Assembly: GCF_056712565.1 (NCBI RefSeq) | Contig: NZ_CM160072.1 | Reading direction: 5' to 3' (one strand) | DNA: 64,000 nt | Shown here: positions 43,801-64,000 of the stretch, piece after piece | Layout: the number at the start of each line of letters is the position of its first letter | Position numbering within the stretch: the stretch's first letter is position 1 | Made by a program: the position numbers

Positions 43801-46800
43801 TGTTCGATAGCCTGATTGAGTTTATCGAAGATAGCCTGATTACTCGCATCAATCTGATTCTGAAAGATGAGAAGGACACCACAGCGCGCCTGCGTCTGAT
43901 TGTGTTGCTGCTTCTCGGTTTTGGTGAGCGTAATCCTGGCCTGACCCGCATCCTCACTGGTCATGCACTAATGTTTGAACAGGATCGCCTGCAAGGGCGC
44001 ATCAACCAGCTATTCGAGCGTATTGAAGCGCAGTTGCGTCAGGTATTGCGTGAAAAGAGAATGCGTGAGGGCGAAGGCTACGCGACGGATGAAACCCTGC
44101 TGGCAAGCCAGATCCTGGCCTTCTGTGAAGGTATGCTGTCACGCTTTGTCCGCAGCGAGTTTAAATACCGCCCGACGGATGACTTTGACGCCCGCTGGCC
44201 GCTAATTGCTGCACAGTTGCAGTAATATGACGCCGGATGACTTTTCATCCGGCGAGTTTCTTTAAACGCCGAACTCTTCGCGATAGGCCTTAACCGCCGC
44301 CAGATGTTCCGCCATTTCTGGCTTCTCTTCCAGATAGGCAATCAGATCTTTCAAGGTGATGATAGAGATCACTTTGCAGTTGTAATCACGCTCAACTTCC
44401 TGAATTGCCGAAATCTCGCCGCGCCCCCGTTCCTGACGATCGAGCGAAATCAATACGCCAGCAAGCGTCGCGCCATTGGCCTGAATAATTTCCATCGACT
44501 CGCGAATCGCCGTTCCGGCGGTGATCACATCATCCACCAGCATTATGCGTCCTTGTAACGCGCTACCGACCAGATTGCCGCCTTCACCGTGGTCTTTTGC
44601 TTCTTTGCGGTTAAAGCAGTACGGCAGGTCCAGGTCATGATGCTCCGCCAGCGCCACGGCAGTTGTGGTGGCAATCGGGATCCCTTTGTAAGCAGGGCCA
44701 AACAGCAGATCGAACTCAATGCCGGAATCCACCAATGCTTCAGCGTAAAAACGGCCTAACAGTGCCAGATCGCGCCCGGTATTAAACAGCCCGGCGTTGA
44801 AGAAATAGGGGCTTTTGCGCCCGGATTTCAGCGTGAACTCGCCAAACTTTAACACCTGCTTGCTAAGCGCAAATTCAATAAACTGGCGCTGATATGGTTT
44901 CATGCCTTCGCTCCTCATCTTACTTTTCTACAGACAAAAAAAAGGCGACTCATCAGTCGCCTTAAAAATCAGTTTGCCAGCGCCGCCTTCTGCGTCGCTA
45001 CAATGGATTCGATTCCCCCTCGGGCCAGCGCCAACAAGGTGAGTAACTCTTCGTGGGTGAACGGTTCGCCTTCTGCCGTCCCCTGCACTTCAATGATACG
45101 CCCGTCTTCGGTCATCACTACGTTCATGTCGGTCTCTGCGGCAGAGTCTTCAACATATTCCAGATCGCAAACCGCTTCGCCGTTCACAATCCCGACAGAG
45201 ACCGCGGCTACCATCCCTTTCATTGGATTAGTTTTCAGCTTGCCGTTTTCCACCAGCTTCTGTAGCGCATCTGCCAGCGCCACGCAGGCACCCGTAATCG
45301 AAGCGGTACGCGTGCCACCATCAGCCTGAAGCACGTCGCAGTCCAGCGTAATGGTGAACTCACCCAGTGCTTTCAAATCTACTGCCGCGCGAAGAGCACG
45401 GGCGATCAGACGCTGGATTTCCATTGTGCGTCCACCCTGCTTACCTTTCGCCGCTTCACGCGCGTTACGGGTATGGGTAGAACGCGGCAGCATACCGTAC
45501 TCTGCGGTGATCCAGCCCTGGCCCTGACCTTTCAGGAAGCGCGGCACGCCTTCTTCAATAGAGGCGGTACACAACACTTTGGTATCGCCAAATTCGACCA
45601 GCACCGAGCCTTCTGCATGTTTTGTATAGTTACGAGTCAGGGTAACGGGACGCACCTGATTATTGCTACGGCCTGCTGGACGCATATTGAAATCTCCGGC
45701 TTGAAACAAATGTGGCTGCGCATTATACGGACTTCCGGCGGTTATTCCTATCCTGACAAGGCATCGATGGCTATAATCCTTCCACCTCTCCTTTTATAAA
45801 CAGGAACGTCTATGATCCGCAGTATGACCGCCTACGCCCGGCGTGAAATCAAGGGTGAATGGGGGAGCGCAACCTGGGAAATGCGCTCGGTAAACCAGCG
45901 TTATCTGGAAACTTACTTTCGTCTGCCGGAGCAGTTCCGTAGCCTTGAACCTGTCGTTCGCGAGCGTATTCGTTCTCGCCTGACGCGCGGTAAAGTGGAA
46001 TGTACCCTGCGCTATGAGCCAGATGTTAGCGCGCAAGGTGAGCTGATCCTCAACGAAAAACTGGCTAAACAGCTGGTAACTGCCGCGAACTGGGTAAAAA
46101 TGCAGAGCGACGAAGGAGAAATCAACCCGGTTGATATTCTACGCTGGCCGGGCGTGATGGCAGCCCAGGAGCAAGATCTCGACGCGATTGCAGCTGAAAT
46201 TCTCGCGGCGTTGGATGGCACCCTGGATGACTTTATCATCGCGCGCGAAACCGAAGGTCAGGCGCTGAAAGTGTTGATTGAGCAGCGTCTGGAAGGCGTC
46301 ACCGCCGAAGTGGTCAAAGTCCGCGCCCATATGCCGGAAATCCTGCAATGGCAGCGTGAGCGTCTGGTAGCGAAGCTGGAAGATGCTCAGGTGCAACTGG
46401 AAAACAACCGTCTGGAGCAGGAGTTGGTTCTGCTGGCACAACGAATTGACGTTGCCGAAGAACTGGACCGCCTCGAAGCGCATGTCAAAGAGACCTACAA
46501 CATTCTGAAGAAAAAAGAAGCGGTTGGCCGTCGTCTGGACTTTATGATGCAGGAGTTCAACCGCGAGTCGAACACTCTTGCTTCGAAATCTATCAATGCC
46601 GAAGTGACGAATTCTGCCATCGAGCTGAAAGTGTTGATTGAGCAGATGCGCGAGCAGATCCAGAATATCGAATAAGCTATCAGCAAAAATCACCAAGCAG
46701 CAAAAAACCATAAAGCCCGCGAAATGTCGGGCTTTTTTGTTATCATGAGCTATCATAACGACGCAACAAAGCGCACAATATGCGTGTACATAGAGGTGTA

Positions 46801-61800: not shown

Positions 61801-64000
61801 TTCTCATCGGCTGGTGAACACAGAGGGGACGTCAGCGTTGATCCAGATACAGGGCAGGTTCTCTCATCCAACAGCTATGACCTTATGGCTGCCAGAGACA
61901 TGGCTGTTGCCAATCCTGAGCTGACTATAGCTCACCCGGAAACCGGAAACCCGACAAAACTTTCTGATCTCCTGGCTGAGTTGGATGAACAGATTAAGAC
62001 AGTCCAGAACGAATCGAAGGTTTATTCTGTAGCGGCAGCGTGCTTCTTGAGGAACCCATAATGAAACAGGCATGTGTTGAAGCTATTGCGCAGACACTTG
62101 GTCGCCAGCCAAAGGCTGATGAGCTGAAAAATATCGAAGATCGTATCAAAGAAGCAGTGCAACATGTGCACAGAAAGAATGCAAAAGAAGGCAAAAGTGG
62201 TATTCCTGATGCTCAAACATACATGGATGCTGCAGAACTGGTACGCCAGCGTGTGGTTCATGATGTGTACAAGAAAAGACAGCGTGTTGCCCAGAATGCG
62301 ATCGCCATCAGTAAAATTACTGACACTCTCGATGCTAACATCCCGCCTGATCAGCAGACACCTGTTAATTTGCAGCAGTTTATTTTTGCTGGCCGACGAT
62401 CGAGAGACAAAGCTGATATCTCCGTTGCTTCTGCTGAAGAGCTTGCAATTGGGGCATATCAGGACTGGTCCCGTCAGCTCAGTGCTGAACTTCTAAAAGC
62501 AGGTGATGACGTCCGCAAATTCTTCGAGCAGAGCAGGGCGCTTGGAGAGCAGCGGTTTCGGAGTGTATTCGACAGGCAGGCGGCAAAGTCTGCACAACTC
62601 CAGATCCTGAAAGAAATTTATGGCGAAGATACCGGGAATCCCCTGGCGAAGAAAATTGCACAGATTTGGAAGGATGTAACAGGCCGTGTTCGTCATGAGA
62701 TGAACGACAACGGCTTTGACATAGGCCTGCGAGAAGACTGGCATACGCCATATGTGGATGATGCTGACCTTATTCGCAATGCCGGGCGCGAAGAATGGCT
62801 GGCATCGTTACCAGTGGCAGAGCAAGCTACAGCACGTCTTTCAGGTCGCCAGCCACCGATTGAGTTTGCCCGCCAGAAATGGGTTGATGACGCTTACAAC
62901 ACGCAGGATCGCAGCAATTACGTTAATCCTGACGGCAGCATTATGAATGACGTCGAGTACCGTCAGGCACTGGAAGCGATCTTTGAAACGAAGGCCACTG
63001 ATGGGGCAAACAAAATTGAGCCCGGTACATTTATGGGAGCCGGAGGAATAAAGAGCCGTGGTTCTCAGCACAGGGTGATGGCGTTCAAGGATGCGCAGTC
63101 ACACTTCGCCTATATGGAGCGATACACTCAGCAGCCGCTGGTGGGGGTGATGATGTCGCACCTGCAATCATCATCCAGGGATTTGGGCGTCGTTAAAGCC
63201 TTTGGTCCGGACGCCGAAAGAAACTTTTCCCTGGTACTGGATCGCATCTATAAGCGCGCAGTAACAGGCGGGAAACGCAAAAAAGAAATGGAGGATGAGG
63301 CCAAATTAGTAGCCCGTATGTTCAACTCAATGGCTGGCCTAAATGGTGTCGCTTCATCGAGTGTGTTCTCTTCAGCTGTTGGTGGTCTGCGTAACCTGAT
63401 GACCAGCGCCATGCTTGGCACCAGCGTACTGACAGCAACCAGCGACCAGGCAATTATGCGGGCAAATGCGCAGGCGCTGGGCTTTACCCGTGGTGGAATG
63501 CGGCTTTCCGTTAACACTATCAAAAACCTGTTTAGTGGAGATGCCAAAAAGGCGAATGCTGAACTCGGTCTGCTGGTGGATTCACATGCTGCTGTGGTTT
63601 CGAAAATGGGCGGGTTTGACTTGTCTCGCGGCATAACTGGCTGGTTCGCAGAGAAGACACTGAAGTGGTCCGGGCTGATCGCTATGGACCGCGCAAACAA
63701 AGCGTCGTTTGGTCTCCTGATGTACAAAAACATTGGCGAGCTGACCAGAAAATTTAAGACGCTGGACGATATGAAAGGAACCGATAAAACCATTCTGGCT
63801 AACAAGGGATGGAGCAATGAGGACTGGGCCATCATGGCAGCGGCAGAACTCAGGCCGATGACTACTGCCGGGCATATGGGGATGACGCCAGACGCGATTT
63901 ACGCTGTGCCCGATAACGTAATCGCCGACATTATGGCAGACCGTATTACCCGGATTCGTGCCGGGAGTGAAAAGGCACTGGCAGCACTTGGAGATCTCCC

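Follow-up and report, generated by a model that had tools for sequence, protein, structure and literature searches.

The 64,000-nt stretch of DNA analyzed here (the window; contig NZ_CM160072.1 of NCBI RefSeq assembly GCF_056712565.1) carries an integrated island that begins at the 3′ end of yicC and runs past the right end of the window. On the basis of sequence comparisons, we show that this island is a mobile, self-replicating element of the phage-inducible chromosomal island (PICI) type, and that it carries a cassette of ejection proteins, of the internal virion protein classes IVP-C and IVP-D, that is under purifying selection. We further infer satellite behavior and a role for the cargo, and put at even chances the resulting interpretation that the island is a Gram-negative PICI-type satellite with an epsilon15-like helper phage and an ejection cassette of its own. 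The window sequence is 100% identical to the chromosome of Escherichia coli ExPEC XM (ExPEC, extra-intestinal pathogenic E. coli; NZ_CP025328.1); positions above 64000 are window-equivalents read from that record, and L001 denotes the 46-kb stretch of this source genome.

The ejection-protein cassette

The late zone of the island is dominated by three large open reading frames (ORFs) behind a terminator-like hairpin. The preliminary description of the window, made from the sequence alone, had already noted that they are coupled, but it could assign them neither a function nor a nameable family; we identify them as homologs of gp15, gp16 and gp17 of phage epsilon15, that is, as a podophage ejection-protein cassette. 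The late-zone genes are as follows, with lengths in amino acids (aa).

57167–57373, + strand: 68-aa ORF, phrog_4934, first gene of the late zone, judged by sequence alone to be ribbon-helix-helix-like
57470–60001, + strand: epsilon15 gp15 homolog, 843 aa, IVP-C, PHROG 992
60001–62061, + strand: epsilon15 gp16 homolog, 686 aa, IVP-C, PHROG 1145
62061–64000 (full gene to window-equivalent 64817), + strand: epsilon15 gp17 homolog, 918 aa, IVP-D (T7 gp16 family), PHROG 684

The three translationally coupled ORFs match these PHROGs (E = 1e-136 to 1e-298), with full-length alignments for gp15 and gp17 and, for gp16, alignment mainly at the ends. In a comparison set of 50,697 phage records, the best matches were Salmonella phage epsilon15 and its close relatives, with aa identities of 80% for gp15, 89% for gp17 and 74–83% for the ends of gp16. 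At the DNA level, homology to epsilon15 extends from one base before the gp15 start codon to the gp17 stop and includes nothing else in the island, in which gp17 is followed by two small membrane ORFs (113 and 95 aa). In epsilon15, gp13 is IVP-A, gp14 is IVP-B, gp15 and gp16 are IVP-C, and gp17 is IVP-D, a member of the T7 gp16 family (Hardies et al., PMC4819975); the epsilon15 gene numbers and sizes in a review of ejection proteins (PMC8954989) disagree with the epsilon15 record, and its assignments were not used. Within the island gp15, residues 249–403 constitute a peptidoglycan-hydrolase domain, with PDB matches to a phage endolysin and to the N-terminus of a phage protein 1,295 aa long.

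The order of gp15–gp17 and their overlapping start/stop arrangement are those of the IVP module gp13–gp17 of epsilon15 (Uetakevirus). The island differs from this phage in lacking gp13 (IVP-A), gp14 (IVP-B) and every other virion gene, in having a gp15 whose N-terminal half is of an E. coli prophage type, and in the 203-aa HExxH segment at the center of its gp16. The earlier observation that terminase, portal, capsid and P4-type psu, delta and sid genes are missing holds for the complete 20,125-bp element, across which RefSeq annotation, PHROGs and NCBIfam revealed none of these and no tail or lysis genes; of the genes of a Uetakevirus prophage, those for terminase, portal, protease, major capsid, tail tubes A and B, tailspike and lysis all have no counterpart in the island.

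The center of the island gp16, at about aa 278–480 (window 60830–61440), is a 203-aa segment with an HHEALH (HExxH) motif. Among 72 epsilon15-type gp16 genes, this part of the protein takes several forms, of ~150 aa in 36 loci and ~45–50 aa in 26, with a few singletons; the 203-aa HHEALH form is found only in six E. coli island copies. The segment had no match in Pfam, a word-indexed protein search was also empty, and a tblastn search of the 50,697 phage records left it uncovered. When 1.84 billion representative proteins were scanned in full with HMMER, the one match was a fragment corresponding to the first 62 residues. A single-sequence AlphaFold model was not used for a fold search because its mean confidence (predicted local distance difference test, pLDDT) was 48.6. 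The center of gp16 is best described as a variable slot in a protein of a class predicted to be ejected into the cell.

Several lines of evidence indicate that the cargo is maintained under purifying selection in the island lineage. Between the islands of ExPEC XM and strain E1, a sister copy, synonymous and non-synonymous changes number 16 and 1 in gp16 and 15 and 6 in gp17, compared with 24 and 1 in the primase gene, and ratios of non-synonymous to synonymous divergence (dN/dS) inside the island lineage are 0.02–0.12, similar to the primase. About 7.3 kb of cargo ORFs are intact in every copy examined. A second island lineage, represented by IMG/VR loci (L048, L050, L058 and probably L046) whose primase and SSB are ~60% and ~70% identical to those of the ExPEC XM island, carries the same IVP trio among other flanking small genes, without gp12–gp14 and capsid genes. 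Synonymous divergence (dS) of the cargo from every sampled phage copy is saturated, at about 1.4–2, so its capture was not recent. The intact ORFs, the bias towards synonymous changes, the presence of the trio in a second lineage and the saturated dS together indicate that the cargo has been retained for a reason.

Candidate helper phages and competing explanations

ExPEC XM harbors a complete ~40-kb epsilon15-like (Uetakevirus-type) prophage between guaA and yfgI (NZ_CP025328.1, 2,791,154–2,834,921; L005), whose tailspike is an endosialidase (K1 capsule-specific), and strain E1 has a complete epsilon15-like prophage at the same guaA–yfgI site (L092, 12762–50000). Such prophages occur alongside the island in several strains, and two of them carry a gene for an endosialidase (K1 capsule-specific) tailspike. 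The island gp15 is a mosaic with respect to the resident prophage of ExPEC XM: nucleotides 1–1546, together with 10 nt upstream, are 96.4% identical to it, and the rest is epsilon15-type, with identity to the resident prophage falling abruptly to 34–59% beyond nucleotide 1546. This breakpoint is common to all five E. coli island copies. The gp16 and gp17 proteins share only 29% and 27% aa identity with those of the resident prophage, and the second membrane ORF after gp17 is 92.5% identical at the nucleotide level (386 nt) to the prophage gene that follows gp17. The cassette thus has a helper-homologous arm on either side, the start of gp15 and the gene after gp17 both matching the prophage; homology of the island to epsilon15 and the resident prophage is confined to gp15–gp17 and one small downstream gene. 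Epsilon15-type gp15–gp17 are also found in a complete prophage of E. coli (L007). As a separate observation, gp17 (window 62874–62891) and the prophage terL (L005 13422–13439) share an exact 18-nt match, CAGAAATGGGTTGATGAC, of which ~0.03 would be expected by chance.

We then asked how often island and prophage are found together. The cassette is present in 36 of 5,426 complete genomes (≥92% coverage, ≥96.5% identity), and the prophage morphogenesis module in 284 of them (≥80% coverage; 5.2%). The prophage signature was found in 17 of the 36 island genomes against 5.2% overall, an enrichment with an odds ratio of 17 and a Fisher p of 4e-13 when strain relatedness is ignored.

The island also carries a homolog of the packaging site of another phage. 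In phage P1, pac is a 161-bp minimal site in which seven TGATCA/G hexamers, in groups of four and three, flank an IHF site and the cleavage sites (PMC10028697).

56401–56556, + strand: homolog of the phage P1 pac site, 156 bp, 83–85% identical to P1, RCS47 and SJ46

The piece spans from the second of these Dam hexamers to 4 nt past the seventh, and it includes the IHF site and the mapped cleavage positions, a region that is well conserved. Four of the seven hexamers are intact (positions 2, 4, 5 and 7), whereas P1, RCS47 and SJ46 keep all seven; one hexamer differs between islands, reading TGATCG or TGATCA, both of which are valid. It lies in a 120-aa fusion ORF (56384–56746), the 3′ part of which is a fragment of a P1-type ant gene (56570–56764): 14 bases past the pac-like piece, homology shifts to the 5′ end of ant, and the remainder of pacA and all of pacB are missing. 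The retained piece coincides with the minimal pac site, which speaks for selection of pac function at the time of its acquisition. The presence of a pac homolog suggests P1-like phages as a possible second packaging route.

These observations would be accounted for by the following scenario. A helper phage would be induced or would infect the cell; the likeliest candidate is an epsilon15-like prophage, co-resident here and in about half of the other island genomes. The island would then excise through Int and AlpA and replicate from its iterons, and the helper terminase would package it into helper-built particles; because 20.1 kb is half a helper genome, two 20.1-kb island copies could fill one ~40-kb headful. 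The chimeric gp15, with its N-terminal 515 aa of E. coli prophage type, would dock the island's gp15 C-terminal portion (gp15C), gp16 and gp17 on the helper gp14/portal core, and the resulting particles would eject DNA via island-encoded proteins, including the island-only HExxH segment of gp16. We can only guess at the benefit, which might be entry into cells that exclude the ejection proteins of the helper, or delivery of an effector domain. Taken to its full extent, the idea would be that of a satellite that re-equips DNA delivery, placing its own chimeric ejectosome in helper podovirus particles so as to enter or disarm cells that block the helper, with the P1-type pac mimic giving it a second helper; we offer this fuller version tentatively and think it rather doubtful.

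What satellites are known to manipulate is the size of the capsid, the specificity of packaging or, in the case of the capsid-forming PICIs (cf-PICIs), the supply of capsids. If it is true that a satellite brings its own ejection proteins, the DNA-entry step would also be a target of piracy. The island would then provide a natural system in which to study, by means of the gp15 chimera junction (near codon 515), the recruitment of podophage internal proteins to the core, to find which parts of the ejection proteins are exchangeable, and to ask whether effector domains enter the cell in the variable central slot of gp16. Exchange of ejection modules between satellite and prophage would also be made possible by the helper-homologous arms on either side of the cassette.

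Several observations weigh against the scenario given above. The small partners gp13 and gp14 are not in the island, nor is there a small terminase subunit (TerS), Rpp or capsid-size gene; the island has nothing in common with the terS/pac region of the prophage, with which a search for a helper pac/terS signal found no common stretch beyond chance 13–15-mers. The sole recognizable packaging signal is of the P1 type, P1 being a myophage without use for IVPs, and even this site has lost three of its seven hexamers. The co-occurrence result is based on a proxy, in that matching places were counted per genome (a prophage being expected to add two), and takes no account of strain relatedness, and at least 11 of the 36 island genomes have no second gp15-like locus. 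Finally, tracking of the co-resident prophage by the gp15 N-terminus is ruled out in E1, where this region of the island gene (1,540 nt) has 57 mismatches to the XM prophage and 173 to the E1 prophage; since the E1 gp15 is nearer to the XM prophage, the mosaic looks like one old event rather than ongoing matching to a local helper.

One may instead regard the cassette as a weapon, in which the chimeric gp15 competes for the helper core and a foreign or poisoned ejectosome cuts helper spread or protects the cell population from epsilon15-like phages. Interference with the helper is a regular satellite trait (PMC6092414), and the combination of a gp15 N-terminus near-identical to the resident prophage with a gp16 and gp17 only 27–29% identical to it is what such competition might look like; purifying selection fits this possibility as well as it does a working ejection cassette. 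We nevertheless consider it unlikely. The gp15C, gp16 and gp17 that the island supplies are complete and mutually matched, and proteins of their type serve real phages, such as epsilon15 and the E. coli prophage at L007, so that a functional ejectosome is the simpler expectation; in addition, the island proteins tested against PADLOC defence models fitted none of them. A defence system in the general sense was likewise set aside, as PADLOC gave no meaningful match, the AntA protein alone having one weak match to a candidate family.

A P1-like phage might also be the effective helper, acting on the pac mimic, with the epsilon15-type genes unrelated to transfer. The degree of identity between 56401–56556 and the pac sites of P1, RCS47 and SJ46, the near-equality of the retained piece to the 161-bp minimal site, with the rest of pacA and all of pacB missing and an ant fragment adjoining, the presence of an Icd-like gene in the island, and the fact that the hexamer difference between islands preserves a valid hexamer all speak for such a history. 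Against it, the site has lost three hexamers that all three P1-like references retain, the second island lineage has the IVP trio and no pac-like piece, and no P1 late-promoter motif precedes the late zone; moreover, ExPEC XM has a 287-kb plasmid whose first 50 kb are ColV-type and not P1-like. As it also leaves the purifying selection on the cargo unexplained, we judge this explanation improbable. The least probable alternative, in our view, is that the cargo is a passive hitch-hiker captured from an epsilon15-like prophage, or the whole island a decaying remnant. Capture of helper late clusters into PICI late zones is documented without an assigned function (PMC10111431), and signs of decay can be found in the frameshifted PerC-like gene and the degenerate pac-like site; against this stand ~7.3 kb of ORFs intact in all copies examined, dN/dS values similar to those of the primase, a trio that is kept beside a ~60%-identical primase and other flanking genes, and an island found at two or more attachment (att) sites in at least 36 genomes.

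Boundaries and backbone of the island

Boundaries were set by a three-way alignment with the empty site of K-12 MG1655, in which dinD directly follows yicC. The ExPEC XM sequence departs from K-12 right after the yicC stop codon (TAA) and rejoins it after a second copy of a 21-bp sequence, 20,125 bp downstream, which gives the span of the element between yicC and dinD in this record.

46655–46675, + strand: attL core, last 21 bp of yicC, CAGATCCAGAATATCGAATAA, from the K-12 empty-site alignment
66780–66800 (window-equivalent, outside the window): attR core, CAGATCCAGAACATTGAATAA, from the same alignment
46712–46735, no strand assigned: bidirectional terminator hairpin, island-borne, now acting as the yicC terminator
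46784–46835, no strand assigned: three exact GTGTACATA repeats, putative integrase arm-type sites

The attL and attR cores are identical at 19 of 21 positions, forming an imperfect repeat of the yicC 3′ end, and insertion leaves the C-terminus of YicC, and with it the protein, unchanged. The predicted attP joins the right end of the island to its left end, with the core CAGATCCAGAA. Two further GTGTACATA copies adjoin attR (window-equivalent 66697–66717), and all five exact copies in the 46-kb L001 stretch lie no more than ~160 bp from the att cores; we read these repeats as probable integrase arm sites. In the preliminary description the sequence left the conserved core directly after the yicC terminator. 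The junction lies instead inside the last 21 bp of yicC, and the terminator is itself island DNA, as K-12 diverges directly after the TAA stop. Other expectations for this locus held up: the right boundary lies beyond position 64000, the far end carries the repeat of the left junction, the corresponding K-12 site is empty, and dinD follows directly, with no capsid or terminase genes just outside the window.

The element is not part of the core genome of most E. coli, being present at the yicC locus (≥80% coverage) in 17 of 5,426 complete genomes. Avian as well as human strains of extra-intestinal pathogenic E. coli carry islands of this kind. In strain E1, the Bro–replication–late module is integrated at tRNA-Gly, with an integrase 28% identical to that of ExPEC XM.

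RefSeq annotation, PHROGs, NCBIfam and Pfam agree on the order of the backbone genes. Those of the integration, Bro and control zones are the following.

46864–48132, + strand: P4-type tyrosine integrase, 422 aa (Arm-DNA-bind_3, Phage_int_M and Phage_integrase)
48129–48779, + strand: 216-aa ORF, phrog_30524, in a low-GC slot
49251–49469, + strand: AlpA-family helix-turn-helix protein of the excisionase/activator type (PF05930, E = 6.9e-6)
49544–51528, + strand: Bro zone, three overlapping genes (Rha-like, 232 aa; AntA/AntB, 247 aa; BRO-N, 185 aa)
51697–52149, − strand: two 65-aa ORFs, phrog_21027 and a YlcI/YnfO-family protein (phrog_949)
52170–52260, no strand assigned: divergent control region with GTGCGCAC palindromes at 52225 and 52248, 23 nt apart
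52355–53113, + strand: small genes leading into the primase (Icd-like regulator, 67 aa; 85-aa ORF; DUF4222 protein, 100 aa)

Both the integrase, which reads inward, and AlpA lie on the + strand and point into the element. Their Pfam domains bear out the initial assignments of a P4-family integrase and AlpA, and the three genes first described as antirepressor-like are the Rha, AntA and BRO-N genes of the Bro zone. Of the divergent repressor/operator switch that had been proposed, divergent small regulators with palindromes are indeed present, but the GTGCGCAC 8-mer is no more frequent in the window than expected by chance; what points to a control role is solely that the pair lies side by side within the divergent promoter region, which we regard as suggestive. 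An Rfam scan of the whole element (E ≤ 1) gave no match, and hence no P4/P1-type (CI/C4) immunity RNA. Parts of the left half vary between islands. The low-GC slot at 48129–48779 holds a different gene in island E1. Several sister islands have, by feature name, a GIY-YIG nuclease gene in place of the AntA gene, and one sister-island copy bears an ISVsa5 insertion, from which turnover in the Bro zone is apparent.

The replication zone extends from the primase gene to a terminator-like hairpin that divides it from the late zone.

53110–55236, + strand: DUF927 primase-helicase-type initiator, 708 aa (phrog_1139, E = 2e-174)
55258–55390, no strand assigned: iteron cluster 1 (origin-like; iterons at 55261–55383), with an AT-rich spacer between two inverted TAACCCGC copies and four direct ones
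55447–55869, + strand: single-stranded DNA-binding protein (SSB), 140 aa
55906–56403, + strand: ProQ/FinO-family protein, 165 aa, by RefSeq annotation only
56809–57034, + strand: PerC-family regulator gene, annotated as frameshifted, with the same annotation in island E1 (L006 15340–15565)
57041–57064, + strand: hairpin and T-run, terminator-like

The succession of a primase-helicase gene, iterons, SSB, a FinO/ProQ-like gene and a terminator had been recognized at or near these positions from the outset. The hairpin at 57041–57064 was seen by direct reading and is absent from the listing of the terminator scan. The frameshift shared by the two PerC-like genes could reflect a real pseudogene or a mis-called short gene; at this position, an E. 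albertii relative has an intact 94-aa ORF matching transcriptional-activator families.

Iteron cluster 1 starts ~20 bp downstream of the primase gene. A second cluster lies ~470 bp inside attR (window-equivalent 66156–66313; L001 22528–22685) and consists of three inverted copies, an AT-rich spacer and two to three direct copies, and all 11 island copies of the TAACCCGC 8-mer fall within the two clusters. The arrangement is retained in the E1 sister island and in one IMG/VR copy; cluster 2 was located at L006 24366–24511, L048 15074–15185, L050 15460–15562 and L079 14454–14475. Across island lineages the iteron sequence covaries with the primase, and it switches at both sites together, from AACCCGC here to TGAACCAA in the L048 lineage and GGGACAAG in E. 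albertii. Because the repeats covary at both sites, we consider this good evidence that both clusters are binding sites of the island initiator.

Relation to known satellites

Gram-negative PICIs consist of four ordered zones, namely Integration (Int, AlpA), Bro, Replication (primase, SSB) and Late (Tommasini, Mageeney and Williams 2023, PMC10111431), and the late zone holds late-gene clusters captured from helper prophages (PMC10111431). The zone order of the island is identical (Int–AlpA, Bro, primase–SSB, and a late zone with captured helper genes), which substantiates the earlier view that the layout is that of a PICI or satellite. The yicC 3′ end is, moreover, a listed PICI site: the reference PICIs EcCIRM13514 and CfCIP10159 both use it as their att site (PMC10111431), and the left junction of CfCIP10159, including the island-borne terminator, is closely similar to that of the island. 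These two elements are set beside the island by att site and junction. At 20,125 bp, the island is at the long end of the usual PICI size range, PICIs being singled out as elongated only above 22 kb (PMC10111431). Where it departs from the general plan is in the late zone, which is made up solely of the IVP-C/IVP-D trio of an epsilon15-like podophage and a P1-type pac piece. The element type, the yicC att site and late-gene capture are already published; in the searchable literature we found no mention of ejection or internal virion proteins in a satellite, and no report of a helper-matched chimera junction, an island-only gp16 insert or a P1 pac mimic.

Satellite phage P4 shares with the island its integrase architecture, an AlpA/Vis-type protein, antirepressor-type genes and a primase-helicase initiator. 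P4 likewise has two separated iteron sites, ori and crr, comparable to clusters 1 and 2. It differs in that the island is without sid, psu and delta and, by Rfam, without CI/C4 RNA, and in that the candidate helper is not P2-like. EcCICFT073, the prototype PICI of E. coli, redirects siphophage packaging via a small protein; by contrast, no gene for a packaging-redirecting small protein and no siphophage late gene was found in the island. As in the island, EcCICFT073 combines an integrase, AlpA and a pri-rep replicon with an iteron origin, has no capsid genes and relies on a helper (PMC6092414), and it parasitizes lambda-type siphophages (PMC6092414). The cf-PICIs are likewise satellites that encode part of the virion themselves (bioRxiv 10.1101/2022.09.08.507074); they supply capsids and packaging proteins of their own and take tails from the helper, whereas the island encodes none of these and has only proteins that would travel with the DNA into the next cell.

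Type genomes of E. albertii, Citrobacter youngae, Pantoea, Winslowiella, Tenebrionibacter and Rahnella contain relatives of the backbone. These hold Int, the Icd-like gene and DUF927, with or without SSB and ProQ, combined with other late zones, which points to a broad satellite-type family with exchangeable late zones. One IMG/VR contig of the second lineage (IMGVR_UViG_3300014936_000057; L050, L087; 19.2 kb) runs from the Bro zone through the cargo and iteron cluster 2 to an integrase gene. We considered whether this contig represents a circular excised form; its ends are similar (3 mismatches in ~47 nt), a tandem pair fits equally well, and we make no claim. The late zone of the Rahnella relative contains a TerS gene, baseplate-like genes and an Abi gene, and in two diverged relatives of the island the late zone is followed downstream by a gene of the AbiD/AbiF-like abortive-infection kind (phrog_2158; L048 17195–18157, L085 17059–18021).

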